Made by a program: the position numbers and the translations under genes
Shown: positions 6,056 through 43,342 of the stretch, piece by piece
Position numbering within the stretch: position 1 is the first letter of the stretch
How the letters are laid out: every line of letters starts with the position of its first letter
Assembly (NCBI GenBank): GCA_965223845.1
Contig: CBDCXR010000004.1
Location: forward strand, 2,944,001-3,008,000
Length of the DNA stretch: 64,000 nucleotides
Reading direction: 5' to 3'
Source of the DNA: Planctomycetota bacterium
Lineage (GTDB): Bacteria > Planctomycetota > UBA8108 > SXIK01
Notes under the pieces: generated by a model
What the model was told of the DNA's origin: nothing
The model's database searches: none
The model's input: only the letters and a program-made list of their open reading frames with translations

Positions 6056-6268
6056 CCTACTCGATCCCTCGAATCGATGCAGCGCCCCGCCCCCACGCGT
6101 CTCGTCCGATGTACGCCGAACGGATCGCGTCGAACGCTCCCGAACATTGGCAACGCCTGGCGCTTGTGGGATGATGACCGGCTCTGCAGGCCGTGGTCGT
6201 TCTCGTTCGTCTGAACGCCTGCGCTATCCCGTCCCGGTGGTCACTCCGTCTCGCGCGCGTCCGAGGTC

Positions 6269-13414: not shown

Positions 13415-14880
13415 CCGAGCCCACCCCTCTCCACGACCGGCGCCTCGACGTCACCCGCCGTCACTTTTTCGGACGCGCGGCGAGCGGTATCGGTACGGCC
13501 GCGCTCGCGACTCTACTCGCCCGGGACCTCGACGGCGCAACGTCCGGCGCGGAGAGCCCGCTCGGGAAAAGCGTGCGCCAGTTCGCACCGCGGGCGAAGC
13601 GCGTCATCTACCTCTTTCAGAACGGCGCGCCGACCCACGTCGATCTCTACGACTACAAACCCAAGCTGCGTGAGTGGCACGGTCGACAGATCCCGCCCGA
13701 AATCCAGGCGGGTCGCCGTCTGAGCACCATGACGAGCGGACAGACCAGTCGCCCGCTTCTCGGCGAGGTCACGCGCTTTTCGCAGCATGGCGAGAGCGGC
13801 GCCTGGGTGAACAGCTTCATGCCCCACATCGCCGGCATCGCCGACGACCTCTGCTTCGTCAAGAGTCTCCACACCGAGCAGGTGAATCACGCGCCGGCGA
13901 TCACGTTCTTCCTCACCGGCGCCGAGATCGTCGGTCGACCGAGCATGGGCGCATGGCTCACCTACGGCCTCGGAAGCGACTCGGAGGATCTGCCGGGGTT
14001 CGTCGTCATGACGTCGCGCGATCGCGAGGCGTCCTGCGGGCAGATCTTCTACGACTACTACTGGGGAAGTGGATTCCTCCCGACAAAGTTCCAAGGCGTG
14101 AAGTTTCGGGGGAGCGGCGATCCGGTGCTCTACCTCTCGAGTCCGCGCGGGCTCGACCGGCGCATGCGGCGCGATCTGCTGGACGACATCGCCGAGCTGA
14201 ACGAGCTCAACCTCGCACGCTTCGGCGACCCGGAGATCGCGACCCGCATCGCCCAGTACGAGATGGCCTATCGCATGCAGGCGTCCGTGCCCGAGCTCAC
14301 GGATCTCTCGACGGAACCGCGGCACATCCTCGACATGTACGGCCCAGACGTCGAGCGGAAGGGATCGTTCGCTTACAACTGTCTGATGGCGCGGCGCCTC
14401 GCCGAGCGGGGAGTTCGTTTCGTGCAGCTCATGCACGCGGGCTGGGACCAGCACAACAACCTCAACCACCAGCTCGAGGTTCAGTGCCGCGACACGGACG
14501 CGCCATCCGCCGCCCTCGTCGCCGATCTCAAGCAGCGCGGTCTCCTCGACGAAACGCTCGTGGTTTGGGGCGGCGAATTCGGACGCACGCCGTTCCTCCA
14601 GGGAAAGATCGCGGACACCAAGCGCTGGGGCCGCGATCACCACCCGTACGCGTTCACGATCTGGATGGCCGGCGGCGGAATCCGTGCGGGCACGTCCTAC
14701 GGCGAGTCGGACGAGTTCGGGTACAACGTCGCGAAGGACCCGGTGCACGTCCACGACTTTCAGGCGACGGTGCTCCATCTTCTCGGCATCGATCACGAGC
14801 GGCTGACGTTCAAGTACCAGGGTCGGCACTTCCGGCTGACGGATGTGCACGGTCGCGTCGTGCGAGAGATTCTGGGGTGA
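13411..14880 (+). CDS. DUF1501 domain protein (Tat-exported)
   Basis: TRRHFF Tat motif; VIYLFQNGAPTHVDLYDYKP, GWDQH, WGGEFGRTP, GRDHHP; ATGA overlap with the upstream gene. Confidence 0.93.
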   Translation: MTEPTPLHDRRLDVTRRHFFGRAASGIGTAALATLLARDLDGATSGAESPLGKSVRQFAPRAKRVIYLFQNGAPTHVDLYDYKPKLREWHGRQIPPEIQAGRRLSTMTSGQTSRPLLGEVTRFSQHGESGAWVNSFMPHIAGIADDLCFVKSLHTEQVNHAPAITFFLTGAEIVGRPSMGAWLTYGLGSDSEDLPGFVVMTSRDREASCGQIFYDYYWGSGFLPTKFQGVKFRGSGDPVLYLSSPRGLDRRMRRDLLDDIAELNELNLARFGDPEIATRIAQYEMAYRMQASVPELTDLSTEPRHILDMYGPDVERKGSFAYNCLMARRLAERGVRFVQLMHAGWDQHNNLNHQLEVQCRDTDAPSAALVADLKQRGLLDETLVVWGGEFGRTPFLQGKIADTKRWGRDHHPYAFTIWMAGGGIRAGTSYGESDEFGYNVAKDPVHVHDFQATVLHLLGIDHERLTFKYQGRHFRLTDVHGRVVREILG

Positions 14881-20939: not shown

Positions 20940-23900
20940 GTGGTACGTCCGAAGCTGATTCTTCTCGTCGCCCTCCTCGCCGCGTCTCGCGCAGATGCGT
21001 CCCCGTGGCTCACGTTCACCGAAGTCTCTTCCTTCCCCGCCGCCGGCGGAGTGGAGTTCGTCGAGATCTACAACATCGACGCCCCGGCCGTCGACCTATC
21101 GGGCTGGCGACTCGAAGGCGCCGTCTCGTTCGAATTCCCGCGCGGGACATCGATCGCCCCTCGCGAGTGTCTCGTCGTTGCGAAGGACCTGGCCGCGTTT
21201 CGAACGATCTACCCCAAAGTGAGCGCGGTCGTCGGCCCGTTCACCGGGGAGCTCCCGGACCGCGGAGGCCGCATTCGCCTTCGGAGCCGAGAAGGCACGG
21301 AGGCGGCGGCGATGCGTTTCGGAACCCTCGGCGCGTGGTCGTCCGTTCCCCGCGGGACGGGGTACACGGCGGTCCTTGGCGACGTCCTCTTCGACCCCGA
21401 AGCCGCGCGAAGCTGGAAACCGAGCGCGCAGCGAGGCGGCAGCCCCGGATCGTTCGAGCAGGTGTTTCGACGTCTCGAAGGCAAATCGATTCTCCGCCGG
21501 GGAGAGCGCTGGCGATTCTTTCGCGGGACCACCGCCCCGCCTCAAGATTGGTTCGAGCCGGAGTTCGACGACTCGAGCTGGGACGAGGGACCGAGTGGCT
21601 TCGGATTCGGCGATGGCGACGACGCCACCGAGCTCAGCGACATGCGGGGAAACTATTTGAGCGTGTTCACTCGGAAGCGCTTCACCGTCGATGATCCCGC
21701 AGGGTGGGCGCGCCTCCGACTCCTCGTCGACTACGACGACGGATTCGTCGCGTTTTTGAACGGCCGCGAGGTTGCGCGGGCGAACTTGGGTGCTCCGAGA
21801 AGTGCGTTCGCCTGGAATCTCCCGGCACGCGGGAGTCGCGAGGCCGGCCAGCCGCAGGTGTACGCACTCGGGAACGGAGCGCGTTGGCTTCGCAAAGGGG
21901 AGAACGTGATCTGCGTCGCCGGATTCAACAACGATCTGTCGTCGTCCGATCTCAGCCTCGCCGTCGAGCTCGACCATCTCCCCGTCCCGAAGCGCGAAGC
22001 GCGCTCGGAGACCGGGCTGCAGCTGAGCGAGGTCGCGCTGCGAGCGAGCGATTCCGGCGATGCTCTCCTTTGGATCGAGTTCTTCAACGCGGGTACCGAG
22101 CCCGAGTCCATCGGTGGCCGCTTTCTGAGCGACGACGCCTCGCGCCCGAAGAAGTGGCGGATTCCCGCCGGCGAGATGATCCCGCCGCGCTCGTACTGGG
22201 TCGTCGACGCGAAGGCACTCGGCGCCGAACGCATCGCCGAGCGAGCGGTGTTTCTCGCTGACGGCGATCGCCGGATCCTCGACGCGATGGCGCTCGCGCG
22301 ATCCGCACCCGGCTCAGGGGAAGGTGCCGAGCTCAGCTTCGGTCGCGGATCTACCCTCGCGCGCGGTGTGAGGCGCCTAGCGCGCAGCACTCGAGGTGCT
22401 CCGAACGCGTTCGAAGCCGCGGGCGACATCGTCATTCACGAAATCCACTATCACCCGCCGACGGGTGACGCCGACGCGTTCGTCGAGATCCACAACCGAG
22501 GGACGAAAACCGCTTCGCTCGCGGGGCTGAGACTCGATGGGCTCGGATTTCGGTTCGCACCCGACCATCGGATTCCCGCGGGCGGTTTCGTGGTCGTCGT
22601 CCGCGATCCTCCGAGCTTTTCGAAGAGAAACTCGCTCTCGCCCGCGCAGGTGCTCGGGCCGTTCACCGGTTCGCTCTCGCGACGCGGAGAATCCGTCCGG
22701 CTGGTCGATTCGGCCGGACGGACGCTCGACGCGGTCGAGTACGCCGATCGAGAGCCGTGGCCGCGCTTCGCGGACGGCGGCGGCTCGAGTCTCGAGCTCG
22801 TCGACGCACGGATCGACAACGCCCTCCCCGGCGCATGGGCCGCGAGCGACGAACGCGCGACCGCACGCTGGCAGGAGATCGAGTACGAGGCCGGCGTCCA
22901 CCTCTTTCGCGACATGCGCGCGTCGTCATTTCAGTTTCTCCTTCTCGACGCGGGTGAATGTTTGATCGACGACCTTCGCATCACGGACGCGAACGGGAAG
23001 GTCGTTCTCTCGGAGTCCTTCGACGGGGATGCAGGTTCCCTAGCGCGCTGGCGCGCGTTCGGGACGCATCTCGACTCGAAACCAATCTCCGATTCGAAGT
23101 ACTCGGAGAGCGCGTGCCTTCGCATCTTCGCGACGGGGCGCGGCAATTCGCGGCACAACTACGTGAGCTGCGATCTCGACCCGGAACTCGAGGAAGACGC
23201 ACGCTACACGGTAGCTTTCCGTGCGAAGTGGCTCGCGGGATCCGCGCTCCTTCTCACGCGAACCTCCGGGCAGGGTCTCGCCCGCCGCCACCAACTGCTG
23301 CGGCCGAACGCGGGCGGCACGCCGGGTCGTCCGAACAGTCGCGCGACGCTCGCCGCACCGATCGTGGGTCGGCCCGAGCAAGCACCGATCGCGCCGTCGT
23401 CCGAGGAGCCGACGCGGTTCGTCTTCCCGATCTCGGCGCGCACGGCGCTCGCGACGGCTGAGCTCCGCTACCGGTCGGCGACCTCCGCTTGGAGCTCCTC
23501 TCCTCTCACCCGCGAGGCGAGCGGTGAATGGACAGCGACGATCCCGCCGCTTCCGCGCGGTCGAGTCGAGTTCTACGCCATCGCGATCGATCGAGACGGC
23601 CGGCGCGGACAATTCCCGCCGGAGGGCGCCGCACGGCCGGCACAGTACGCAGTGGATCTCGAGGTCGCGCCCGAGCTCCCGACCTACACCGTGCTCGTCT
23701 CGGAGCGTGAGTGGAACGCCGCACGCGCACGTCAACGACTCTCGAATCGAACGATGGACGCGACGCTGGTCTACGGCGATCAGAGGATTTTTTACAATGT
23801 TGGATTCCGTGCGCGCGGGAGTGGGTTCACTCGCGGCTCGCGCAATTGGCGCGTCGTTCTCGGCCGAGATACGCTCGACGGGCGCTCCGAGCTGACGTTC

Positions 23901-25109
23901 GACGGCCAGGGTCGCGACCGCGCGATGATGAACGAACGCCTGACGTTCTGGTTGCTCGATCAAGTCGGAGCCCCGACGCCACGACAGCGGTACGTGCGTC
24001 TCAACGTCGTCGGCCACCCCGAGGAGAGCGGCACCTACGAGGATGTCGAAAAGATCAACGGCGCTTACGTCGATCGGTGGTTCGCGCACGAGGAAGGAAA
24101 CGAATCGCCGCGACTCCACAAGATCGATGACTATTGGGACTTTCGGCCGCCATCCCGAACTGCACCGGCGTTCGGAGGCGATCCACGCGGTTTCCGGGGC
24201 TTCCGCGGGCGCGGGGGCAGCTACGTCGAAGCGTACCTCCAGTACGAAACCGACGATCCCGAGGACTACCGGTGGAACTTCCCGCCGCGAGCGAACGGCG
24301 GACGAGAAGATTTCCGACCGCTCCTGGATCTCATTCGTCTCGTCGACCCGAGGGAGACGAGTGACGACGAATTCCGCCGGCGCGTCGAATCGCTCGTCGA
24401 CGTCGACGAGTGGATCCACGTGCTCGCAGCGCGAACGGTCGCGAACGACTGGGACACGTACGGACTCAGCCGCGGGAAGAACGCCTACCTCTATCGCGCT
24501 CCGTCGGGACGGTGGAAGCTGCTCCCGTGGGACTCCGATCTGAGCTGGTTTTCACGCGGCTTCGGCCGCTTCTCTCAAGGAAACTCGCTCTTCTACGACA
24601 AATTTCCGGCGGTGCGTCGGCTGCTCGCACAGCCCCCCTACCGCCGGGAGTTCCTGAGCACCATCGCGTTCCTCGCGCGGAAGCGTCTCGAACCGGCGCG
24701 CTTCCGGCGAGTTCTCGACGAGCTCGAAGCCCAGGTCGGCTCTCGCGCCTACGGCCTGGCGGAAACGGCGGCGCAGCGTCGCGAGCAGGCCCTGCGTCAG
24801 ATTCCGTCGGTCGAGTTCAGAATCGAAGCTGTCTCGCGCGGCGACAGGAGCGACGAGGGAGACGGCGATCGACTCCATCTCGCGGGCACGGCACCGTTGA
24901 TCGCCCACCGACTCGTCGTCGCCGGTCGCGCGGTGGACTGGCGTTTCCGCGATCTCGAATCATGGACGAGCGAGATCGACTGGAGCGACCTCGGGCCGGA
25001 GTACGCTGCGGACGAACCGCCCGAGCTTCGTATCGAAGTCGTCGACCGCGACGGAGACGCCGTCGGCGCGGTCTCGGTGGCGGCGCCGAAACGACCCGAC
25101 GCGAAGTAG
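20940..25109 (+). CDS. Exported lamin-tail-domain / CotH-kinase-family multidomain protein
   Basis: Signal peptide; three lamin-tail-like repeats (EFVEIYN, WIEFFN, IHEIHYHP...FVEIHN); DYDDGFVAFLNG sandwich; CotH FRARGSGF, NDWDTYG...KNAYLY, WKLLPWDSDLSW. Confidence 0.85.
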   Translation: MVRPKLILLVALLAASRADASPWLTFTEVSSFPAAGGVEFVEIYNIDAPAVDLSGWRLEGAVSFEFPRGTSIAPRECLVVAKDLAAFRTIYPKVSAVVGPFTGELPDRGGRIRLRSREGTEAAAMRFGTLGAWSSVPRGTGYTAVLGDVLFDPEAARSWKPSAQRGGSPGSFEQVFRRLEGKSILRRGERWRFFRGTTAPPQDWFEPEFDDSSWDEGPSGFGFGDGDDATELSDMRGNYLSVFTRKRFTVDDPAGWARLRLLVDYDDGFVAFLNGREVARANLGAPRSAFAWNLPARGSREAGQPQVYALGNGARWLRKGENVICVAGFNNDLSSSDLSLAVELDHLPVPKREARSETGLQLSEVALRASDSGDALLWIEFFNAGTEPESIGGRFLSDDASRPKKWRIPAGEMIPPRSYWVVDAKALGAERIAERAVFLADGDRRILDAMALARSAPGSGEGAELSFGRGSTLARGVRRLARSTRGAPNAFEAAGDIVIHEIHYHPPTGDADAFVEIHNRGTKTASLAGLRLDGLGFRFAPDHRIPAGGFVVVVRDPPSFSKRNSLSPAQVLGPFTGSLSRRGESVRLVDSAGRTLDAVEYADREPWPRFADGGGSSLELVDARIDNALPGAWAASDERATARWQEIEYEAGVHLFRDMRASSFQFLLLDAGECLIDDLRITDANGKVVLSESFDGDAGSLARWRAFGTHLDSKPISDSKYSESACLRIFATGRGNSRHNYVSCDLDPELEEDARYTVAFRAKWLAGSALLLTRTSGQGLARRHQLLRPNAGGTPGRPNSRATLAAPIVGRPEQAPIAPSSEEPTRFVFPISARTALATAELRYRSATSAWSSSPLTREASGEWTATIPPLPRGRVEFYAIAIDRDGRRGQFPPEGAARPAQYAVDLEVAPELPTYTVLVSEREWNAARARQRLSNRTMDATLVYGDQRIFYNVGFRARGSGFTRGSRNWRVVLGRDTLDGRSELTFDGQGRDRAMMNERLTFWLLDQVGAPTPRQRYVRLNVVGHPEESGTYEDVEKINGAYVDRWFAHEEGNESPRLHKIDDYWDFRPPSRTAPAFGGDPRGFRGFRGRGGSYVEAYLQYETDDPEDYRWNFPPRANGGREDFRPLLDLIRLVDPRETSDDEFRRRVESLVDVDEWIHVLAARTVANDWDTYGLSRGKNAYLYRAPSGRWKLLPWDSDLSWFSRGFGRFSQGNSLFYDKFPAVRRLLAQPPYRREFLSTIAFLARKRLEPARFRRVLDELEAQVGSRAYGLAETAAQRREQALRQIPSVEFRIEAVSRGDRSDEGDGDRLHLAGTAPLIAHRLVVAGRAVDWRFRDLESWTSEIDWSDLGPEYAADEPPELRIEVVDRDGDAVGAVSVAAPKRPDAK

Positions 25110-30961: not shown

Positions 30962-31125
30962 TCCGGTCGCGGACGAGGGCGGCGACCTCCCACGAATGGC
31001 AGTATCGTCCTTGACGACGCCAGATGGATCGCTCTACGTTGGTGTCTGAACCGACAGAGGGTCGAGCGTCACTCCAGCCAGGGGCAAGTGCTCGGGGGCG
31101 ACGCTCGCGCAGACGCACGAGCGGT

Positions 31126-31132
31126 AAGGAGG
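31126..31132 (+). promoter_or_regulatory. Shine-Dalgarno site AAGGAGG
   Basis: Perfect SD 5 nt upstream of the in-frame GTG at 31138. Confidence 0.7.
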
Positions 31133-31137
31133 CAGAT

Positions 31138-32679
31138 GTGATTGATCGTCGTTGGACCCGTTGTATCGGGCGAATTCGGCGTCCCGGGCGCGCGAACGCG
31201 GCCCCTCGGTGCGCGAATCGTTTCGCGCGAGCCACGCTGCTCGCGCTCAGCACTGTGCTCGCGAGCGGTTGCAGCGACTACCTCAAGAAGAGGGAGCTCG
31301 CGGCGGTCGCGAAAGACTGGTCTCTCGTCATCCGGGCGAGTCAGGTCATTCCCGTTTACCCTCTCACCGAGGATCTTCAACCGGGTGACCTATTCCTCGT
31401 GCTTCGCTCGATTCCCGAGCAAGTCGACGAGTACACAAAGAGTGGCTTCCTCCCACTCGATCAGCACATCACTCGTTTGGGCCCGTTCGACTACGCGACG
31501 CACTATCAGGAGTCGTACGGGACGAAAGATCGCCCCGTCATCCCGCGCGATTATCAGTTCCCATCGAACGCTGCCGGCACGCCGGCGACGCCGGAAAGAG
31601 ATGCGAGCTCGTCGACCCCGCCGGATGGTGCGGCTGCGACCGCGACCGCAGACGCTACGCCGGCGGGAGGCGAAGAGAGCGGGGACGACGCGGGGGACAA
31701 TTCGAGCGAGCCAGCGACGACGACGGACTGGAAGCTCGCGCCGCGCGCCGCCTTCCCGAGCTACAACTTTTCGGTGAAGAGCGGAGGCGCGCTCGGGCTC
31801 GCGATGCCGATTCAGGGGGTTCCCGTCGCGCTGAGCCTCATGCAGGCGGATCAGGCGACCGGGTCGGTGACGATCAGCGATGCGTATACGTACGGGCTAC
31901 CGTTTCAAGGAATCGCTACCGAAGTCTACGACTGGGCCAGACAGCCCCTTCACCGGTCCATGTTGGCGAACCTGCGACGGGAAGTCGTGAACGCGGAGAG
32001 TTGCTGGAGCCGGGCGTGGCGCTGGTTGACCCGCCGACCCGAGCCGACGATCTACGTGCGAGCGGTGAACCGTGTCTATCTCACGCAAGGGATCGTCGTT
32101 CAGGTCAATGCGTCCTCGAGCGGCGGCGCGGACATCGCGGGTGGAGCTCCGAAGGACGTTCAGATTCCCGGATTGGAGGACCAGAAGACCGCCGAGAACT
32201 ACGCGAACGCCCTCGAGCAAGTGAGCAAGAAGATCGACAGCACTCTTCCCGGTGGGGAGTTGAAGCTCGCTTGGGCGACTTCCCGCTCCGTGTCGCTCTC
32301 CGAGAACTTCGAACGACCGCTCGTGGTCGGGTACCTCGCGTTCGACTTCCCGGTGCTTCCCGACGGAAGTCTCGGCGTGCCGATCGCTACGCGCGATCAG
32401 CTTCAGCGAGGCAGCTCGGACGTTCGGGTCGAGTCGGCCGTCGAGGAGTACGGCGACGTCCTCGAGGAGATTGAAAGCCTCCCCGAGGCACGCCGGAGCG
32501 GAGTCTACGAGAAGGCAGCGACTGCGCTCGGGACCGAGTTCAAAGCGCTCTACGACAAGGAGCGCGCATCTCTTTCGCCGGGCGAGGCATTCACCACCGC
32601 CCGCCGCCGTCATTCCTTCGGGAAGTCGGTCGACGCCGCGCACTACGAGAACGCGCTGCGGACGGCGTTGAGGGACTAA
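31138..32679 (+). CDS. Hypothetical lipoprotein with predicted gasdermin-like pore-forming fold
   Basis: GTG start after AAGGAGG; Arg-rich n-region, h-region TLLALSTVL, lipobox ASG-C (Cys codon 31270). Motif order IPVYPLTEDLQPGDLFLV ... FPSYNFSV-hairpin ... IYVRAVNRVYLTQGIVVQV ... ELKLAW...PLVVGY resembles gasdermins. The CDS is solid; the fold call is inference. Confidence 0.7.
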   Translation: MIDRRWTRCIGRIRRPGRANAAPRCANRFARATLLALSTVLASGCSDYLKKRELAAVAKDWSLVIRASQVIPVYPLTEDLQPGDLFLVLRSIPEQVDEYTKSGFLPLDQHITRLGPFDYATHYQESYGTKDRPVIPRDYQFPSNAAGTPATPERDASSSTPPDGAAATATADATPAGGEESGDDAGDNSSEPATTTDWKLAPRAAFPSYNFSVKSGGALGLAMPIQGVPVALSLMQADQATGSVTISDAYTYGLPFQGIATEVYDWARQPLHRSMLANLRREVVNAESCWSRAWRWLTRRPEPTIYVRAVNRVYLTQGIVVQVNASSSGGADIAGGAPKDVQIPGLEDQKTAENYANALEQVSKKIDSTLPGGELKLAWATSRSVSLSENFERPLVVGYLAFDFPVLPDGSLGVPIATRDQLQRGSSDVRVESAVEEYGDVLEEIESLPEARRSGVYEKAATALGTEFKALYDKERASLSPGEAFTTARRRHSFGKSVDAAHYENALRTALRD

Positions 32680-33361: not shown

Positions 33362-35371
33362 TCACTCGAACCGAGTTCTCACCGACTCGAGAATCCGTCC
33401 GATGCGATCCAGATCTTCCGGGAGCCAGTAGCGCTCGTCGACGAGCTTCTTCGCCGACTCGCGAAACTGCTCCCGGTAGTCTTTGAAACTCGCGTACCGT
33501 TCCCCGAGGGAAGGGCGCGGGTCGCCGCGAGATGTCCGCTCGGCGCGAGAGCGCGCGAAGGGGATGTACCCGCCGCTCAGGCTGAGCAGCTCCGTCTCCG
33601 CTCCGATCGAGCGATGCCGGAGATTCCAGCTCGTAAACGTACCGAGTGGAACGTCGACGCTCGGAAGGTTGAGAAATCCGAGCTCGTTCCCATCGGCGCG
33701 GTACGCGCCGACCTTCACGACGTAGTCGCCGAGCGATCGCGGCGGCTCGATGCTGGTTCGGCGACTCCGCAAAAACTCTGGCCCGCGATCGAGAAACTCG
33801 GGCTGCTGAATCACCTGCGGGTAACGTACGCCCGGAAGTGCCGGCCAGCCGCTCTCGCGCTCCCGCCAACCGACGAGCGTTCCGTCGGAGATTTTCGGAT
33901 ACGCACTCGGCGGCGGCGCGACCCCGTCGCGCACCCACGCGTCGAGTGCGAGGACCAGCGCTCTCATGAACGGCCGGTAGTCCGCGTGATTCGATGGGAG
34001 CTGACCTCGCGTGCTCGGACCTGACGGACGCCCCGAGCCTGGTCCGTGCTGCGTTCCCCCGAAAGAGTAGATTCGAACTTCCGGAGGGATCTGCGCATCG
34101 CGCTGCCCGAGGGGATCGGTGTGGACGAGCGAACCGCTTCGATGCCAGTACTCCGACGACGATTGAGTGTGGAACACCTTCGGCACCGTTCCCGTAGCAC
34201 GAGCGCGCCGGAGAATCCCGTCGACACGGCCGGTGAACGGATCGACGTCGTCGCCATACGTGAAGGGAAAGACATCCGCGGGGTAGAGGTGATTGTCGTG
34301 CTGCGCGTTGTGACGCGTCGGCGACGCGAAACGATGGTTGAAGAATCCGAGGCCTGCGCCGGCTACGTGCGGGATCACCCCGTCGAACACCATCCGCCCG
34401 GACTCGTCGCGATTGAATCCGTCGTAGAGAAGCATCCGGAGACAGCGACCGCTTTGTGACGTGCCGAACCCGTAGGCGAACTCCATCGCCGGCGCGCCGT
34501 CGCTCTTGAGAAGCGGATTGCGCTCGTCGGTGAAATACTTGAGCGACGAGATCCAATCGCGGATTCCGGCGAGCCCGAGTCCCTGAACGAGCGGATTCTT
34601 GGCTTCGTAGATGAGCTCGTAGATCTCGCCGGCGCGGAATCCGCCGGCGTAGACGAGATCGACGCGCGGGAGCGCGGCGCCATCGACCCACTCGATGTCG
34701 AAGTACCACTGCGATCGCGGTATCGGGACGCGTGGATCCTTCTCGCGGAGACGACGGGTGAGGGTCGCTTCTCGCTGGCCTCGCTCCGTCGGCGCGTAGC
34801 TTCCGTGACCGCCCCAGTGTGCGATGGAAAGGCGGTCCGTATCACGATCGGGCGCCATCTCCGCACGGACGACTCCCGTGATGGCCTCGCCGGAGTCGCG
34901 TGCGACGGGCGCGCGAAGAACGTAGCGACGGCCGTCGGGAATCAGCTCTGCGATCCAGCCGCTCCAGGCCACCACGAACCCGTGACGCGCGAAGAAATGA
35001 TCCGCACCGCCGCCGATGATCCCGAGGCAGGTGGGATTGCCCCGATTGTTCACGTCGTAAAACACCGCGCCGTTCGACCGCTCGACCTCGACCGGCTTCA
35101 AGAGACCGAAGTCCGCCGAGAAGCGCACGCGTCCGTCACCGTCGCGCGGGGCGAGATCGAGATCGACGACGTTCCGGCTGCTCTGGGCGAACGGATCGAC
35201 GGAGAAATGAACGACGCCGCGGACGAGCTCGTACGGACCTCGCTCGCCGAAGGATCGACCGCTTGCGTAGGGAGTCCGCGACGAGATCTCGACGCGGACG
35301 ACCTCGGCATCGATCGTCGCCGCGCCGAGGCACATGACGCAAACGACGAACATCCCGATGAGTTGGCGCAC
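33362..35371 (-). CDS. Exported alpha/beta hydrolase domain protein (Abhydrolase_10-like)
   Basis: GTG start after GGAGGG; signal peptide; YDVNNRG, AWSGW, GLGLAGIRD, GTSQSGR nucleophile elbow, SSSEYW, GGTQH, VPLGTFTSWN. Confidence 0.87.
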   Translation of the reverse strand: MRQLIGMFVVCVMCLGAATIDAEVVRVEISSRTPYASGRSFGERGPYELVRGVVHFSVDPFAQSSRNVVDLDLAPRDGDGRVRFSADFGLLKPVEVERSNGAVFYDVNNRGNPTCLGIIGGGADHFFARHGFVVAWSGWIAELIPDGRRYVLRAPVARDSGEAITGVVRAEMAPDRDTDRLSIAHWGGHGSYAPTERGQREATLTRRLREKDPRVPIPRSQWYFDIEWVDGAALPRVDLVYAGGFRAGEIYELIYEAKNPLVQGLGLAGIRDWISSLKYFTDERNPLLKSDGAPAMEFAYGFGTSQSGRCLRMLLYDGFNRDESGRMVFDGVIPHVAGAGLGFFNHRFASPTRHNAQHDNHLYPADVFPFTYGDDVDPFTGRVDGILRRARATGTVPKVFHTQSSSEYWHRSGSLVHTDPLGQRDAQIPPEVRIYSFGGTQHGPGSGRPSGPSTRGQLPSNHADYRPFMRALVLALDAWVRDGVAPPPSAYPKISDGTLVGWRERESGWPALPGVRYPQVIQQPEFLDRGPEFLRSRRTSIEPPRSLGDYVVKVGAYRADGNELGFLNLPSVDVPLGTFTSWNLRHRSIGAETELLSLSGGYIPFARSRAERTSRGDPRPSLGERYASFKDYREQFRESAKKLVDERYWLPEDLDRIGRILESVRTRFE

Positions 35372-35390
35372 TCCGGTTCCCTCCGTCGTC

Positions 35391-36968
35391 CTACTGGGCG
35401 TTCTTGTGAATCGGCTCATCGACGACCAGCGGCGGCGGGAACGACGACGCGCTCCGTCCGCCTCGTCCGCGGATGCGCTTGTTTTGCGAACCGCCGCGCG
35501 GCTGGTTGAGAGGGATCTCCATGCCGCCGAGCTCGGCCATCATCTCGTAGAGTCGGTTCTCCATTTTCTTCGCGATCTCCTTGAACGCCGGGTCGTAGAG
35601 GAGATTCTTCGACTCGTTCGGGTCCTGATCGAGATCGTAGAGCTCGTCGGCGTCCCACAGTCCGTAGTATGTGATGTACTTGTAACGATCACCGCGAAGC
35701 GAGAACACCGTGGGCGACTGGGGAAAGTTTTTCTCCCAGTAGTAAACGTAGAGAAAATAGTCGCGCCAAGCGACGTCCTTCCCTTGCGCTAGCGGAAGGA
35801 AGCTCTGACCGTCCATATGTGCGGGCGTCTCGAGCCCCATCGCCTCGAGAATCGTCGGTGCGACGTCGATGTTGGCGACGACCTCTTCGACCACTCGGCC
35901 GCCGGAGAACATGGCCGGGCATTGCATGAGCATCGGAACGCGGATCGATGTCTCGTACGCGACGCGCTTGTCGATGAGCCCGTGCTCACCGAACATGAAG
36001 CCGTTGTCGCCCATGTAAATGACGAGTGTCTCGTCGTGGATGCCCATGTCCTTCAGTTTTCCGAGCACGCGCCCGAGGCTGTCGTCGACGGCGCAGAGCG
36101 TTTCGCAGTAGTTCTTGTAGTACTTTTCGATGTCGAGCTCGCTGTGGTACGGAAAATCGACGCCGTGCCAACTGTTCCTCTGGTCGCGAAGCCAGCGCGG
36201 CTTCAGGTGATAGTTCGCTTCTGTGTTCGCCTCGGAAGCTGGACGCTCGAACGGAAGATCCGCGAACTTCCCCCGGTGTCGATCCGCGGGAGTGAAGTTC
36301 GCGTGCACGGCCTTGTGAGAGAGGTAGAGGAAAAACGGCTTCTCGGCCGGTTTTTGCGCGTCGAGCCATCGCAGAGCGTAGTCGGTGAGCTCGTCCGTAA
36401 TGTATCCCTGCTGCTTTACCCGCGCTCCGTCGACGTTCAGCGTGTAGTCGGGTTTGGGGGGAAGATAGTGCCCCTGACCGCGGAAGCTCACCCAATGGTC
36501 GAATCCCGGACGGGGCTCGTCGCTCGCGCCTCCCATATGCCACTTGCCGACGAACGCGGTCGCGTACCCCGCTTTCTGAAGATACTGAGGAAAGAAAATC
36601 GTGCCCTTGGGAACGAGTCGGTTGTTGTCGATCACGCGGTGCCGGAACGTGTAGAGTCCAGTCAGGATGGACGCGCGGCTCGGTGAACAGAGCGACGTCG
36701 TGACGAGGGCGTTCTTGAGGTGGACGCCGTTCTTCGCCATCGAGTCCATGTAAGGTGTCTTCGCAAACTGGTGCCCCATGAAGCTCATCGCGTCATAGCG
36801 ATGATCGTCCGAGAGCACGAAGACGACGTTTCGCGGCTTCGCGCCTTCGATTCGTTCGGGGAGGCTGATGTTCGCGGGGGCGGCCTCCTCGGCACGGATG
36901 GACCCCGCGAAGCTGCCAAGTGGGACCGAAAACAAGGCAAGTGAAACGAACAGTGCGCGTCGAACCAT
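35391..36968 (-). CDS. Cys-type S1 sulfatase (GlcNAc-6-sulfatase-like)
   Basis: VFVLSDDH, SLCSPSRASILTG, GKWHMG, HKAVH, MGDNG, DKR; signal peptide. Confidence 0.94.
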   Translation of the reverse strand: MVRRALFVSLALFSVPLGSFAGSIRAEEAAPANISLPERIEGAKPRNVVFVLSDDHRYDAMSFMGHQFAKTPYMDSMAKNGVHLKNALVTTSLCSPSRASILTGLYTFRHRVIDNNRLVPKGTIFFPQYLQKAGYATAFVGKWHMGGASDEPRPGFDHWVSFRGQGHYLPPKPDYTLNVDGARVKQQGYITDELTDYALRWLDAQKPAEKPFFLYLSHKAVHANFTPADRHRGKFADLPFERPASEANTEANYHLKPRWLRDQRNSWHGVDFPYHSELDIEKYYKNYCETLCAVDDSLGRVLGKLKDMGIHDETLVIYMGDNGFMFGEHGLIDKRVAYETSIRVPMLMQCPAMFSGGRVVEEVVANIDVAPTILEAMGLETPAHMDGQSFLPLAQGKDVAWRDYFLYVYYWEKNFPQSPTVFSLRGDRYKYITYYGLWDADELYDLDQDPNESKNLLYDPAFKEIAKKMENRLYEMMAELGGMEIPLNQPRGGSQNKRIRGRGGRSASSFPPPLVVDEPIHKNAQ

Positions 36969-37198: not shown

Positions 37199-38236
37199 AT
37201 GCTTTCTCTCCGCCGGCTGCTGCTCCATTCTTCCGCGGCTCTCGTCGCGGTCGGATTCATTTCACCACCAGTCGAAGCGATGCCCGAGGATCCGCCCGGA
37301 GCGGCGAGCCCCGACGCGGCGGCGGATCTCTTCGACCGAGTCGATCATCACTACGCGAAAAACGGCGATGTGAAGCTCCATTACGTGTCGATCGGATCGG
37401 GCCCCGTCGTCATCCTCCTCCACGGGTTTCCCGACTTCTGGTACACCTGGCGGCATCAGATGGATGCACTCGCCGCCGACCATCGCGTCGTGGCCATGGA
37501 CCTTCGCGGCTACAACAAGAGCGACAAACCGAAGGGCGTCGAACAGTACGACATGAAGCTCCTCATCGCCGACGTCGAAGCCGTGCTCGTTCACGCCGGA
37601 GCCGAACGCGCCACGATCGTCGGCCACGACTGGGGCGGTGCGATCGCTTGGGGATTCGCGATGGCGCGACCGAAGCGGACCGAGCGGCTCATCATCCTCA
37701 ATCTCCCCCACCCGCGCGGGCTCCTCCGCGAGCTCGCCACCAACCCGCAGCAGCAGAAGAACAGTGCGTACGCCCGCGAGTTTCAGAAGGAGGGGGCGCA
37801 CGAAAAGCTGAGTGCCGAAGGCCTAGCCCTCTGGGTGAAAGAGGCGTCCGCTCGTCCCCGGTACGTCGAAGCGTTCAAGCGTTCCGACTTCGCGGCGATG
37901 CTGAGCTACTACAAGCAGAACTATCCCCGCGAACCCTACGAGTCGAATCCGCTCGCGGCTCCAGGTGTCAAGGTGAAGTGTCCAGTGCTCATGTTTCACG
38001 GACTCGACGACTGGGCGCTGCTCCCGGGCGCGCTCAGCGGTACGTGGGACTGGATCGAAAGCGACTTGACCCTCGTCACCGTGCCCGGCGCGGGCCACTG
38101 GGTGCAGTACGACGCGAAAGAGCTCGTCACCCGGCGCATGCGGACCTGGCTTCGCGACACGAAGCAGCAGAGCGCGAAAACGCCGAGTGGTCGACCGCGC
38201 ACGAATGACGACCGGAACGAATCTCGCGATCAGTGA
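37199..38236 (+). CDS. Exported alpha/beta hydrolase (epoxide hydrolase-like)
   Basis: [29 protein letters not shown] (Asp nucleophile), GAGHWVQ; signal peptide from MLSLRR. Confidence 0.92.
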
Positions 38237-41200
38237 TCGTGCTTCTCGAAGATCTTGTGCTTCGCGTCCCCGCGGGCGTGAACGTAGGCGATGAGATCGA
38301 GAATCTCTTCTCGCGTGAGCTTGCTGAGCAAGCCTTTCGGCATGATCGAAGTGTCCGCTTTCTCTCGGCTCGCGATCGCGTCGGGAGCGAGGACGGTCGG
38401 CGGCGCCTTGCCCAGAGGATCCGTCGCTAGCTTGACCGCATCCGCCGTCTCCTCGATCACCATCCCCGTCACTACGTCGCCGGACTCGAGGACGAAGGTG
38501 TAGGAGAAATACCGCTCTTCGATCTCGGCCGACGGCTCGATGAGCGACTTCAGGATGTGTTCCGTCGTTCGCTTCTGCTCGTCGAGTTGAGCGAGGTCCG
38601 GCCCGACGTTCTGCCCCTCGTCGCCGAGGCGGTGACACGCCGAACAGCTCGCCGCGCGGAAGAGACTGCGACCGACCTCGTACGAACGACCGCCGTGAAG
38701 AGCGGCCACCTCAGGCGTGAGATCCGCGATCGTCCACTCCGTGTTGCGCGCGGTGTACTTGAGGAGCTCGTCCTTGAGGGGAAGCGGATTCGCCGCGAGG
38801 TACGCCTCGGGATCGGCGAGGTACGCCTTCAAGTCGCGGACGACGTACAGCGCGCCGTACATGCGCCGCCAGTGCCCGGGGTACGTACAGACGTACGGGT
38901 AGATTCCGGGATCATTCGGCACGTCGAACCCGAGCGCCTGCGTCTCTCCGGGCTGAAGCAGTCGACTCGCGAGGATGATCTTCTCCGACTTCGGAATGTA
39001 CTGCCGGGCTTCGGCGTCTTCGTCCTGAGCGGTCTCTTCGGCGAGGAGTCCGACTTCCTCGAGTGCGCCGGGAATCGTGACCGCGAAGTTGTGCGGCATA
39101 TTGTCCGTGTTCGAGATGATGAACTCCACGCGACGGCCTGCCGCGACGGCGAGGCGCTCCTTGTCGTAGATCATCCGTTCGGGAACGGTACCGATTCGGA
39201 TCATCTGTACCTTGAGGTCGGCGAGGCGCGCCTGCACTTCGCGCGCGCGTTCGGGCGAAAGCTTGGCGGCGAGCGTGTCGCCGAGGCGCATCACGTCGAG
39301 CGCACTCCTCGACGTTCGGTAACGCTCCGGGATCTCGCTCACGTAGGAGGCGAGATTCACTGCGAGCGCGCCGATTTCGCTCTCAACCCAGGAGTCTTCG
39401 GGAAGCTCGCTCAGAGCTCGCACCGAGCTCACCACCTGTTTCCCGTCGGCCACGAGCCGCGCGAGGTCGCGGAACTTCTCCGCTTCTCGCCCCGGAATGG
39501 ACGAGAGGGAGCGGACGGCGACATCGTGGATCGTGTCCCGCCTCGGAGAGGATAGGCGTTCGCTCGGGATGCGCTGCTTTCGAAAACCGGGTCCGGCCCA
39601 CGACACGATGAGGCCATCGTTTCCGCCGTTGTCGTAGTACGTGACGACGATCGGATGCTCTCCCGGCTGGAGGCGGATTTGACCTCGCCGCTCGACCATA
39701 CCGTGATTTCCGTCGTTGTTGACGACGAGCTCGTTGGCGACGTAGAGGCGTGAGCCGTCGTCCGAGTTCGTGAAGAAGCGATAGCGTCCCGCTCGTTCGA
39801 CGCGGAGCATCCCGGTGAAACGAAGCCCGAAACCGTCGCGCTGCTGGATCTGCGGTACGTCGAACTTGATCTCGGGAACGATCCCCGCTGCCTTCGGCTC
39901 GTGTTTCGCAAACGACTCGATCGTGGCGTCGCGCGGCCGTGGAAAGAAGTACTCGACCAAGACTCCGTTCTCGTCGAGCTCGGCGCCCTCACCCGTCTCA
40001 CGAAGATGCTCCGGTAGATCGAACAGGAGCGGCCGAACTTCGTCGTAGAGTCCCTCCGGAACCTGCTTCGCATCGATGAGTGCGATCGCTTCGAGGAGCT
40101 CGCGAAGGCGGACCTTGTCCTTCGATGCGAGCTGGAGAGCCGACTCGGCCGAGCCGTCGGCGGCGATCCACGCGGCGTATCCCATCCGGCGCGTCTCGGC
40201 GCGCTTGCCATCCGTCGCCAGACGCCGGACCTGTGCGCGGGCGGATTGGACATCGCCCGCCATCGACTCGCCGAGTATCTGAGCGAGACCGGCGAAGCTC
40301 GCGTCGCGCTCGCGCGCATCGAGATCCTCGACGACATTGAGGAGAACCTGCAGCTCGGCGGCATTCTCGATTCGCGCGAGCCCCTGGATCGCTTCGCGGA
40401 GATGCGTGACCTCGACATCCGAACGCGAGAGAATCGCGCGGAAGACCGATTCGGTCCGCTCGAGCTTGAGAAGATCCGCCACGCTCGCGTTCCGCAGAAC
40501 GTAGGCGTACGCAGCTTCGGAAAGCTTCTTTCCCGAATCGAGCACGTGCTTTACGTACGCGTCGACGTCGATCGATCGACGCGCCTCGCGGAGTACAAAA
40601 TCGAGCTGGACGTCCGTCGGCAAGCGCTCCGCCTCGAAGACGATCTCCGCGGCATCCGGACCGCGATAGAAGACCGACGCCACGACGGCTTCCGCGCGAA
40701 CGCGGGGATGTCGGTCTGCGGCGAGCTCGAGAAGAAGAGCGCCGGTGTCCGGGACTTCGTCTGCCCAGTCGCGGAGAACGCGCACTGCCGCTGCGCGCGC
40801 GTGAGGCTCGGGCGAGCGCAAGACGCGTCGAAGGAGCTCGACATTCACGATCCGGTGCTGCTGGTGGACCCAAAGCGATTCGACGAGCGCGCGCGCATGG
40901 TTCGCGTTTTTCTCGTCGAACTTCGCCGACCACGCCTTCACGGCCGCGGCGACTTCTTCGCTGTTTCGTCCGCTGAGCTCGAGCCGTGCGCGGTAGCGAC
41001 GGCTGAGCATCGGCGCATCGAGATGCTTCACGACATCCGCCGTCGGTCCCGTCAAATCGGCCGGCTCGACGAGCGGACGCCCGTCCGCGGTAACACGGTA
41101 CACGCGACCGTGATCGTGATCTCGACTCGGGTCGCGGAGGTTGTGCTGCATGTGGCCGATGAGCGGGTTGTGCCAGTCGAGAATGTACAGCGCGCCGTCG

Positions 41201-43146
41201 CTTCCGACTTCGACGTCGCTCGGGCGGAAATTCGGATCGGAAGAAACGACGATCGTTTCGACCTCCTCTGCTCGGATCCCGGCGCCGTCGTCCACGAACT
41301 TGTACTGCGCGACGCCCTGAAATCCGATCGTGTTACAGATGAGAAGATTGCCCTGGTTCTTCTCCGGGAAGTGCGGCGACGCGAGAAGACCGATCGCCGG
41401 CACCGGACGGACCCGCTTTTGAAAGAGATGGCGCGGGGCCCCGCGTCCCGGGAATCCGACATAGAATCCGTTGCCACTCGTGCCGTCGGTCGCGAATTGG
41501 TAGCCCCACTCGTCGAATACGTCGCCGTGCGGATTCGGTCCGATCGGGAAGTGGAACTGAAACTCGTACGTCCGCGGGTTGAACCGGTACATCGCGGTTT
41601 GCGAGCTCCGATAGGGTGCACCCCACGGTGTCTCGATCCCCATGACGTGGAACACGCCGCGTTGAAAGTAGAGCCAGCCTCCAGGGCCGATCACGAAGGA
41701 GTTCGCCGTGTGGTGCGTGTCGGCCGAATCGATCCCGTGGAGCAAGCGGATTCTCTCGTCGGCCTTGTCGTCGCCGTCCGTGTCCCTGAGGAACACGAGA
41801 TCCGGGGCCTGGGCGACGATGACCCCCCCGCCCCAAAATTCGAAACCGGTCGGGTTGTGAAGCCCATCGGCGAACACGATGCACCGGTCGGCTCGCCCGT
41901 CGCGGTCCTCGTCGGGCAGAATGACGAGTTTGTCGTTCAGGGGCTTTCGCGGATTCCAGTGCGGGTAGGTCGGCCACGCGGCGACCCAGAGACGTCCCTT
42001 CGGATCGACGGAGCACTGGACCGGATTCACGAGCTCGGGGAACTGCTCCTCCGACGCGAAGAGGCCGACGCTCATCCCCTTCGCGATCGTCATCTTTGCG
42101 ATGGCCCCCGTTCCCGTGAGGAAATCGTGCTCGCCGCCGCGAGTCTTCCCCGGCCGGTTGGTCTTCACCTCGAGCGGCGGCGGGGCGTTCGAATCATCGA
42201 CCTTGAATTTCCCCCCGCGGGCGACCGCCCACACGCGTCGATCGCGGTTCGCGGTCATGACGTCGAGCATTTCGAGCTCGCGCTGCATCACGACGAAGTT
42301 CGTCTGGCCGTCGACGAACTTGAGCGAAGAGCGTCCCCCGAACACGCTGTATCCGTCCGTCGCGCGGTAGCGGTTGTGCCAGTAGAGATTCTTCTCGAGC
42401 ACGGCCTCGCGAACGCGCGCGAGGCTTGCTTCGTCGCGCGCGGGGGCTTCTCCGAAGAGCTCTCCGTCGATGATCTCCGCGAGGCGTCGATTTCCTTCCT
42501 CGGTGAGGTGAATGCCGTTGATCGTGAGCGGTTTCGGCGCTCGCGCGTAGAGATTCGCCGTCGCCGAGAAGAGATCGACGAACCGAACGTCGTGCTCCTT
42601 CGCCACCGCCGCCATGGCGCTCGTGTAGAGAGCGAGTCGCCGGTTGTTCTCGCTTCCGTCGGGAAGGTGCGGACTGTGGAGGTCCTCGTGCGCGATCGGC
42701 GAGAAGAGAACGACCCTCGGGGCGGACTCGCCGTTGTACTTCTGCTCCGCGATCTTCGTGAGAAATTCGGCGAGACGGGTTCGAAACCCGCTCAGCCCCT
42801 CCTCCCCAGCAAACGACTCGTTGTAGCCGAAGAACGCGAATATGAGGTCGGCTTCGGAATGAGAGAGATGCTGATCGGGAGAGCCGAAATTCGCCGAACG
42901 CGGTCGCACGTCGAGCTCGTCAGCGGAGAACCCCAAATTGCGAACGACGATCTCACGCTCGGGGAAGCGTGTCTGCACAAGCGTCTCGAGCCAGCCGTGA
43001 TGCTGCATCCGGTCGGCGAGCGTGTTTCCGATGTAACAGATGCGATCGCCCTTCCGGAGCTCGAGCTCCGGTGCCGCGTCGATCGGAGCAAGAGTCGTCC
43101 AACCGGCGAACGCGGCGACGAAAAGCGTTGGGAGCGAAGTCCTCAT
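38230..43146 (-). CDS. PVC-type heme-binding CxxCH multidomain protein (SGNH-like + beta-propeller dehydrogenase-like + HEAT + PA14 + cupredoxin + cytochrome c)
   Basis: Start MRTSLPT with signal peptide. GNTLADR/GYNES/NGIH; LFASE...NP, DxDGDGxAD-like repeats, FRPSD...[11 protein letters not shown]; PA14 NSDDGSRL; MPHNF and [12 protein letters not shown]; CSACH...VGPDL...SIMPKGL. Confidence 0.9.
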
Positions 43147-43342
43147 GCGCGCTGGGTCTCCTCGGCGAGTGAGTCGTATCGTGAATCGAGCGCTGACGCG
43201 GGGTCGCGAGACGTAGGGCGTCAAGCGCGGGGGGCTGCGATTATCGCAAAACGGTGAGGAGTCTGTCCAAGAGCTGGTGACGAGCTTTCTCGAGGACACG
43301 AACCCGGACACCCACCAACCGCGGCGCCGAGGCCCCGGTCGA

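Follow-up and report, generated by a model that had tools for sequence, protein, structure and literature searches.

Gasdermins are executioners of pyroptosis and of bacterial abortive infection. The mammalian and fungal proteins (Pfam families PF04598 and PF17708) consist of an N-terminal domain, a linker and a helical C-terminal part, with a repressor domain of ~200 amino acids (aa). Bacterial gasdermins (bGSDMs) are represented by structures 7N50, 7N51 and 7N52, the pore structure 8SL0, PADLOC model PDLC02986 and Pfam family PF26164. Reportedly, from the work of Johnson et al. in 2022, a Cys of these proteins is palmitoylated. Palmitoylation of bacterial gasdermins is also mentioned in PMC11260154. 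A preprint of October 2026 (10.64898/2026.10.05.756811) states that the action of gasdermins is, in every case, from inside the cell, and introduces pyroptolysins as the first exception. Here, we describe a gene for a predicted lipoprotein, remotely related to bGSDMs, from a Planctomycetota bacterium (GenBank assembly GCA_965223845.1). The gene lies in a 64,000-nucleotide stretch of contig CBDCXR010000004.1, which we call the window. An initial annotation of this DNA, made from the sequence alone, proposed an exported gasdermin-like lipoprotein, with no neighbouring protease, as a candidate pore-forming system. That interpretation, taken as a whole, is partly supported by the results below.

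A conserved gene with a family-wide lipoprotein leader

The gene is intact and occupies positions 31138-32679 (+) of the window, stop codon included. It encodes a 513-aa protein, P0001. The enclosing open reading frame (ORF) spans 31024..32679 (+), with an in-frame GTG start codon at 31138. A Shine-Dalgarno-like AAGGAGG, read directly from the sequence, is found at 31126-31132 (+), 5 bases upstream of the GTG. The database record P0002 is 100% identical to P0001, and there is a single copy of the gene in the source genome. The G+C content of the gene region is that of its surroundings. A promoter and terminator scan around the gene found nothing above chance level.

Residues 1-44 (31138..31269, +) have the sequence features of a lipoprotein leader: a positively charged, Arg-rich start, a hydrophobic core (ATLLALSTVLA) and a lipobox (L-A-S-G) ending in Cys. 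The TGC codon at 31270-31272 (+) encodes Cys45, which is predicted to be lipid-modified and to begin the mature protein; it lies just where the initial annotation had located it. We defined a lipobox-type leader as a hydrophobic stretch, then [GASTN]-Cys, 7-25 residues ahead of the first conserved helix. This layout is present in 226 of 245 family proteins. Of the remaining 19, eight are cut at the N-terminus; inspection of the other 11 revealed such a Cys in all but one. The Cys45 column is at least 90% conserved in both a 71-sequence, family-only alignment (A1) and a 110-sequence alignment of the superfamily (A3). Family-wide, the residue after the lipobox Cys is mostly A, T, S or G; P0001 has Ser at +2 and Asp at +3. 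Judged by these features, and by their conservation across the family, P0001 is very likely an exported lipoprotein. Note that in E. coli, Ser rather than Asp at +2 signifies the outer membrane, a sorting rule that may not hold in the phyla carrying this family.

Of 7999 candidates that were scored, 701 are related to P0001 at E≤0.001. An exhaustive scan, covering 1.84 billion representatives, returned 806 clusters, 419 of which were at E≤1e-30. P0001 has no match, at E≤1, in Pfam, NCBIfam or PADLOC, and P0001 alone has no meaningful match among PDB sequences. Similarly, no precomputed Pfam domain was found in 120 relatives, among the matches listed, and no Pfam 38.1 family is common to the members of the family's own Atlas clusters. 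Scanning one genome per species identified 206 relatives. The best 80 of these 206 loci are from Planctomycetota (25), Acidobacteriota (14), Verrucomicrobiota (13), Pseudomonadota (11), Nitrospirota (4), Methylomirabilota/Rokubacteria (4), Spirochaetota (2) and four other diderm phyla (1 each), with three unassigned. All 77 loci with a phylum label are from diderm phyla. The carriers are environmental bacteria and nearly all are metagenome bins. Among 301 Planctomycetota genomes, ten have a family member (eight strong matches and two weak), and this search did not find the family in the listed genomes of the source's own family or order. In a FastTree phylogeny of 81 members, phyla are intermixed, with 23 label changes against a minimum of 11. 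This intermixing fits vertical descent within clades, plus horizontal transfer. Viral contigs (0 of 28 pattern stretches), plasmids and phages yielded no relative. A search for shorter homologs, of 30-218 aa, recovered fragments only.

Two weak matches in anammox-like genomes (P0335 and P0336) define a distant subfamily, in which the motif order is kept and the lipobox is present. Searching with P0335 yielded 69 proteins, from Brocadia, Scalindua and Shewanella among others. The main family and the distant subfamily align over residues 31-409, with an hhalign probability of 99.9% (E 7e-34). Members from culturable Shewanella (P0384 and P0386) have a ~300-aa insert, rich in K, E, A and T, at the exact site of the variable P/T/A-rich insert of P0001 (see below). 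Two other members (P0400 and P0401) are anchored N-terminally by a segment that lacks Cys, and carry an OmpA peptidoglycan-binding domain at the C-terminus. Such fusions mean that the conserved domain lies in the periplasm. Beyond the last strand, the majority of distant-subfamily members have 14-37 residues. Directly downstream of P0335, on the same strand, is a 267-aa ORF with a lipoprotein-type leader of its own (L082:973-1776, -).

Remote homology to bacterial gasdermins

Structural comparisons used Atlas models of two homologs, P0011 and P0102, which are 43% and 40% identical to P0001. For both, after the family's own clusters, the nearest named structure was a 'Gasdermin bGSDM' cluster. 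TM scores to this 262-aa cluster were 0.40 by query and 0.64 by row for one model (212 residues aligned), and 0.43 and 0.65 for the other (215 aligned). The remaining neighbours included more bGSDM clusters, together with fungal gasdermin, GSDME and pejvakin clusters at TM 0.35-0.41 by query. A TamB-like lipid-transfer fold was also considered. This was ranked below gasdermin because no sequence method supports TamB.

Sequence profiles were compared with 177,635 distinct PDB sequences, among which five bGSDM chains were identified. With A3, the sole match at E≤10 was the gasdermin 7n50_A (E 0.79). With A4, a 44-sequence alignment of the distant subfamily, 7n50_A ranked first of three matches (E 0.11). 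Both profiles align the same two colinear stretches. The first is a P-x-x-E-D-x-x-x-G-D strand, aligned to residues 17-36 of 7n50_A. The second is a V-x-R-V-Y strand pair, aligned to residue 152 onward. In P0001, the latter corresponds to residues 305-324 (IYVRAVNRVYLTQGIVVQVN; 32050..32109, +), a central strand pair with the motif Y-V-R-A-V-N-R-V-Y-L-T. According to these alignments, this is the counterpart of the gasdermin V-V-T-x-V strand. Note that a bGSDM alignment (A9, see below) matches human GSDMD at E 0.53-0.96, with 12-13 bits. Since these scores equal those between the family and 7n50_A, this is the level at which accepted gasdermin homologs detect each other.

To compare alignments directly, bGSDMs were taken from genomes with the PADLOC bGSDM model, PDLC02986, and seven were aligned to make A9. 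This was validated on 7n51, 8sl0, 7n50, 7n52 and 9v2s (E 3.7e-62 to 2.5e-15). Using hhalign, A3 matched A9 with a probability of 74.1% and P 2.8e-5, across 132 columns. Residues 230-415 of P0001 (31825..32382, +) are colinear with bGSDM positions 99-231. A second colinear match aligned residues 63-89 with bGSDM positions 11-37 (P 0.0028, or 0.0022 with twelve bGSDMs). Sixty column shuffles of A9 scored 22.0 at most, with probabilities no higher than 1.0%, and the reversed alignment scored 16.8. The P value was 0.0018 with five bGSDM sequences, 2.8e-5 with seven and 3.8e-5 with twelve; 40 shuffles in the twelve-sequence control reached a probability of 1.4% at most. Of the attempts to enlarge the bGSDM alignment from metagenomes, A7 was too diverse, A8 gained none and A10 gained five. 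The best scoring stretch, against the bGSDM profiles, was the last beta hairpin, at residues 372-404 (48 and 40 columns, P 3.8e-5 to 1.4e-4). This segment, GGELKLAW...YLAFDF (32251..32349, +), contains the motif P-G-G...R-P-L-V-V-G-Y-L-A-F-D-F.

On profile comparison, the remote homology to bGSDMs is of moderate strength. Adding the structural neighbours of the two homologs, we consider it likely that P0001 is a remote homolog of gasdermins. The likeness first recognised by eye is thus backed by the Atlas neighbours, by the top PDB match of two profiles, and by hhalign with its shuffle controls. P0001 is filed as a new branch of the gasdermin superfamily, and not as a bGSDM.

The conserved, gasdermin-like N-domain comprises residues 46-425 (31273..32412, +), as delimited by identity in 243 family proteins and by hhalign to the distant subfamily. 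Mean pairwise identity in these 243 proteins is 55% for residues 46-141 and 44% for residues 197-425. Between these parts is a variable insert, rich in A, T, P and D (residues ~142-196; 31561..31725, +), which is absent or different in relatives (alignment occupancy 0-20%). The first-strand motif, I-P-V-Y-P-L-T-E-D-L-Q-P-G-D, falls in residues 63-89 (31324..31404, +) and overlaps residues 70-88 (VIPVYPLTEDLQPGDLFLV; 31345-31401, +). Further along, residues 206-249 (FPSYNFSV...TISDA; 31753..31884, +) form a highly conserved, beta-like block. Invariant columns in A1 are Y74, P75, E78, D79, G83, D84, F206, P207, Y209, F211, P224, P229, R308, R312, V313, Y314, G372, P394 and G398. Of these, P75, D79 and G83 are invariant across A3. 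The motifs singled out by the initial annotation coincide with invariant, or nearly invariant, columns of the family alignment, and its sequence blocks, insert and C-terminal part of ~110 residues were all found where it had placed them. A crude hydrophobic-periodicity scan of the family alignment gave a beta-like signal at residues 208-232, 242-255, 315-335, 373-379 and 401-416. The same scan gave helix-like periodicity in the C-terminal part. Mutual-information contacts (Neff 207) gave weak hints linking L89, I305, W379 and F404, and are not relied on.

About 110 residues separate the last hairpin from the stop codon (32677-32679, +). The linker, Q-L-Q-R-G-S-S-D, and the helix-like tail make up residues 426-513 (32413..32676, +). 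This segment is fast-evolving, with a mean pairwise identity of 17%, compared to 44-55% for the N-domain. In the main family, each of the 218 proteins scored extends 47 residues or more beyond the last strand (median 130; 110 here). The tail has no match in Pfam; its comparison with the PDB gave one chance-level match, and no cytolysin at E≤10. Gasdermins have this same layout, in which a conserved N-domain precedes a linker and a tail that both vary. By analogy, the tail may inhibit the N-domain.

The family and bGSDMs are alike in several respects. Profile similarity is remote and reproducible, and covers the first-strand motif together with the domain's C-terminal two thirds. Both have a lipid-bearing Cys near the N-terminus of the mature protein, predicted in the case of P0001, and a segment after the last strand. 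In addition, caspase-like peptidases are neighbours in at least four family loci. There are also differences. While the family has a Sec/lipobox leader, six leaderless bGSDMs (L085-L090) have a short N-terminus, with M-x-C, M-G-N or similar. The family domain is ~120 residues longer, with inserts, is much more conserved, and does not match the bGSDM model. The family tail has 80-200 aa, versus ~20-40 in bGSDMs. Finally, family genes usually lack a protease, whereas a protease-like gene (HExxH or trypsin-like motifs, identified by eye) is directly downstream in three of the six leaderless bGSDMs (L085, L089 and L090).

Two related observations were made alongside. A 296-aa ORF in another Planctomycetota genome, G236 (L084:1297-2184, -), has a lipoprotein-type leader ending F-A-A-C and matches the PADLOC bGSDM model (E 2.8e-8). 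It represents a second and shorter type of lipobox-bearing gasdermin relative, distinct from the present family, with no protease gene visible in its 3.6-kb locus. Separately, the Thermoanaerobaculia genome G403 encodes a leaderless bGSDM (L085, E 1.4e-34), followed downstream by a gene in which an HExxH motif was identified by eye, together with a lipoprotein-family protein (L033). Hence, the leaderless and lipoprotein types coexist.

Possible modes of action

We infer a membrane address, autoinhibition by the tail, pore formation and a role as follows. The leader would be removed and Cys45 lipidated, anchoring the protein to an envelope membrane outside the cytoplasm. The likeliest address would be the periplasmic face of the outer membrane, because the +2 residue is Ser rather than Asp. 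The C-terminal tail would hold the N-domain (residues ~46-425) inactive. Upon removal, or displacement, of the tail, the N-domain would oligomerise, its beta hairpins would insert into a membrane, and the envelope would be permeabilised. The trigger could be a protease, in lineages with a Peptidase_C14 (C14) gene next door, and something else in the source genome. The likeliest role would be to permeabilise or kill the producing cell, in a regulated way, during conflict or stress. We give roughly even chances to P0001 being a Sec-exported gasdermin homolog, with a lipid anchor and a membrane-permeabilising N-domain inhibited by its tail. Whether the protein forms pores is just as finely balanced. 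That it acts on the producer's own envelope is a more doubtful proposition.

The link to peptidases is confined to some loci. After dropping 13 of 147 flanking ORFs that exceed 1000 aa, Pfam matches were tallied for 134. Peptidase_C14 was found in three, all in one half of the set (3 of 66), where it was the commonest family; nothing was frequent. PADLOC labels the three ORFs 'caspase', and two were placed, in L075 and L077. Using these in blastp searches, we found orthologs, with 40-63% identity, beside the family gene in L063 and L076. Hence, a C14 gene directly adjoins the family gene in at least four of 81 loci. These C14 genes are all single-domain. In L075 (Nitrospinota), the C14 gene (662-1474, +) shares the strand of the family gene and stops ~20 bases ahead of it. 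In the other three loci, which are Burkholderiales-type, the C14 gene is adjacent and divergent (L077, 128-1174; L063, 7010-8161; L076, 6981-8045; all -). The adjoining peptidases have no signal peptide, while the family proteins in those loci keep the lipobox. No ortholog of the linked C14 peptidase was found in the source genome with that query. In the window, no peptidase was found above the curated Pfam cutoff among the eight neighbours with a Pfam match. The sole peptidase-named match in the window, Peptidase_S9 (E 6e-4), is below the cutoff and inside an esterase domain. The absence of a neighbouring protease, claimed initially, thus stands for the window and for most loci, and fails as a rule for the family.

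When the 3554 ORFs of the 81 loci were clustered, no conserved neighbour emerged beyond clade synteny. The commonest neighbour clusters were generic: ABC ATPases (17 loci), sulfatases (11) and sigma-54 activators (10). No secretion-system or toxin-immunity context was found across the 81 loci. The locus of the closest homolog (L001, 51% identity) has three TIR-domain genes, one fused to a methyltransferase domain, and an imuB-like and RecA-like pair. These conflict-type genes are at 5070-6215 (-), 6425-6886 (+), 12996-14438 (-) and 767-2948 (-). The TIR genes were not found by blastp in other loci. The L001 context looks like a conflict island, unlike the window. Hence, in a minority of lineages, the family is linked to caspase-like peptidases and conflict-type genes.

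Several results count against the proposal of a tail-inhibited, permeabilising gasdermin homolog. Some concern homology. The PADLOC bGSDM model, PDLC02986, does not match P0001 (E≤1), six further family members (E≤10), or anything in the whole source genome (E≤10). The Pfam Gasdermin model, PF04598, does not match P0001 at E≤1, and is absent from the best 25 of 36 families matched by 71 members at E≤10. The family-only profile, A1, has no gasdermin match in the PDB, and the E-values of 0.11-0.79 obtained with A3 and A4 are, alone, not significant. The hhalign probability of 74% is below 95%. Confidence in the Atlas models of P0011 and P0102 is middling (pLDDT 0.59 and 0.62, pTM 0.57 and 0.55), TM scores normalised by query are just 0.40-0.43, and a TamB-named cluster is also among the neighbours (TM 0.53-0.54 by row). 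Other results concern function. The N-domain is far more conserved than is usual for gasdermins. The block at residues 206-249, also unusually conserved, contains two invariant prolines. This was the first hairpin of the initial annotation; its prolines and conservation are a poor fit to a plain membrane hairpin. Together, the conservation and the prolines suggest a conserved partner, or a role other than pore formation. With just 14-37 residues following the last strand in most distant members, a long inhibitory tail is no universal feature. The C14 neighbours, being leaderless, would not meet an exported substrate. There is, as noted above, no conserved neighbour. In the window itself, hydrolases, a sulfatase, a PQQ propeller and an ECF sigma factor are an ordinary context, and none of eight neighbours matches PADLOC, which counts against a conflict role here.

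Many of these points would suit a gasdermin-fold lipoprotein with a non-lytic, constitutive role in the envelope. This could be a structural part, linked to peptidoglycan or the outer membrane, a stable oligomeric channel, or a lipid binder using the hydrophobic face of its twisted sheet. Across phyla, the N-domain is very conserved (mean identity 55% and 44%) and has charged and proline positions that do not vary, as is typical where a partner or ligand is fixed. The OmpA-domain fusions in the distant subfamily, the ordinary envelope and hydrolase genes of the window, with no defence genes among them, the TamB-named structure neighbour, and the fact that no conserved protease or partner was found, all argue the same way. 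We nevertheless regard this explanation as unlikely, if serious. A patchy distribution (10 of 301 Planctomycetota), with intermixed phyla and no member found in the nearest kin searched, is unusual for a housekeeping function. A fast-evolving tail that is always present, and C14 neighbours in at least four loci, better fit an effector that is held back. Pfam revealed no homology to known channel lipoproteins. CsgG-type channels are outer-membrane lipoproteins that oligomerise to form a beta-barrel, with hairpins from each subunit. The comparison is one of working principle only, with no Pfam match and no sequence relation detected.

The protein could, alternatively, be a pore-forming toxin directed outward, from the cell surface or in outer-membrane vesicles, against competitors, prey or grazers. 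The model would be the pyroptolysins, which, in the preprint (10.64898/2026.10.05.756811), have a gasdermin-type domain outside the producer's cytoplasm, and are encoded by mostly solitary genes of environmental Gram-negative bacteria. P0001 is predicted to be exported and lipid-anchored, its gene is solitary, and carriers of the family are environmental. The neighbourhood also lacks an immunity-like small gene, although a protease is absent as well. We think this improbable. Pyroptolysins have an Ig-like C-terminal beta-sandwich with a W-P motif, like that of CDCs, and need sterol. No such target-binding domain was found in P0001, in which the tail is helix-like by periodicity and matches nothing. 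P0001 has a lipobox, and the words lipoprotein, lipobox and periplasm do not appear in the text of the preprint available to us. Conservation this strong is unusual for antagonistic toxins, the OmpA fusions indicate the periplasm and not the surface, and no secretion-system or toxin-immunity context turned up in the 81 loci.

Least probable of all is that P0001 is a beta-rich lipoprotein of some other fold, with chance motif likeness and a generic twisted beta sheet: though there is no family-model match, the PDB E-values are marginal, and the middling Atlas models are of homologs rather than P0001, with TM by query below 0.5, three methods of different kind converge on gasdermins and on nothing else consistent, two independent profiles select 7n50_A, through an identical pair of colinear stretches, from 177,635 sequences with five bGSDMs, shuffled and reversed controls are far below the real score, and P improved from 0.0018 to 2.8e-5 as the bGSDM alignment grew from five to seven.

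Returning to the proposal of a tail-inhibited gasdermin homolog, two further groups of proteins bear comparison. P0001 shares with mammalian and fungal gasdermins the order of N-domain, linker and C-terminal part, helix-like by periodicity in P0001, and differs in having no Pfam match, a much shorter tail, and predicted export with a lipid anchor. By language-model features, the nearest Pfam-named cluster, for both homologs, was Pepco/Trypco2 (score 0.83-0.84, below the 0.9 lead threshold). PF19631 was not matched by P0001 or seen among the listed Pfam matches of the 71 members, and we treat this as a lead only. Pepco/Trypco2 proteins are described as protease-activated pore formers (10.1101/2025.11.14.688446).

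Searches of titles and abstracts found no description of a lipoprotein, lipobox, periplasmic, extracytoplasmic or Planctomycetes gasdermin family. Barrio-Hernandez et al. 2023 (PMC10584675) mention unannotated gasdermin-like structure clusters, and these may overlap with the lipoprotein family. What we describe would be an extracytoplasmic, lipid-anchored branch of the gasdermin superfamily, whose function we can only infer. In its fullest form, the proposal is of at least ~800 clusters, in diderms, of Sec/Lgt lipoproteins that perforate membranes from the periplasm or from outside, in most cases with no protease dedicated to them. This would be a regulated device for envelope lysis, or cell death, not yet described; we advance it tentatively, with somewhat more doubt than belief. 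If true, the Cys would be triacylated or diacylated, in place of the palmitoylated Cys of cytoplasmic gasdermins. Lineages with a caspase-like neighbour would be an evolutionary bridge to classical bGSDM systems. A large, conserved, exported and lipid-anchored family would also be a second, different exception to action from within. Questions then raised are how, with no partner protease, a gasdermin domain in the periplasm is silenced and then triggered, which membrane is attacked, and whether N-terminal lipidation of gasdermins derives from lipoprotein processing or gave rise to it. A name and a testable hypothesis would also be gained for several hundred 'hypothetical proteins' of Planctomycetota, Verrucomicrobiota, Acidobacteriota, Nitrospirota, anammox bacteria and Shewanella.

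The surrounding window

The neighbours of the gene encode an LTD and CotH protein, an ECF sigma factor, a TAT-signal protein, a glucuronyl esterase/FGE-domain protein, a PQQ/BamB-like propeller, an Abhydrolase_10 protein, a sulfatase and an alpha/beta hydrolase. The sulfatase and Abhydrolase_10 genes, downstream of the gene for P0001, are at 33362-35419 (-) and 35391-36968 (-). Their 29-base overlap suggests co-transcription. No tRNA or tmRNA gene was found in the 64-kb window. The region from 25.8 to 38.2 kb is rich in exported hydrolases. It is flanked by two very large ORFs, at 20940-25109 (LTD and CotH, 1389 aa) and 38230-43311 (-; 1693 aa).

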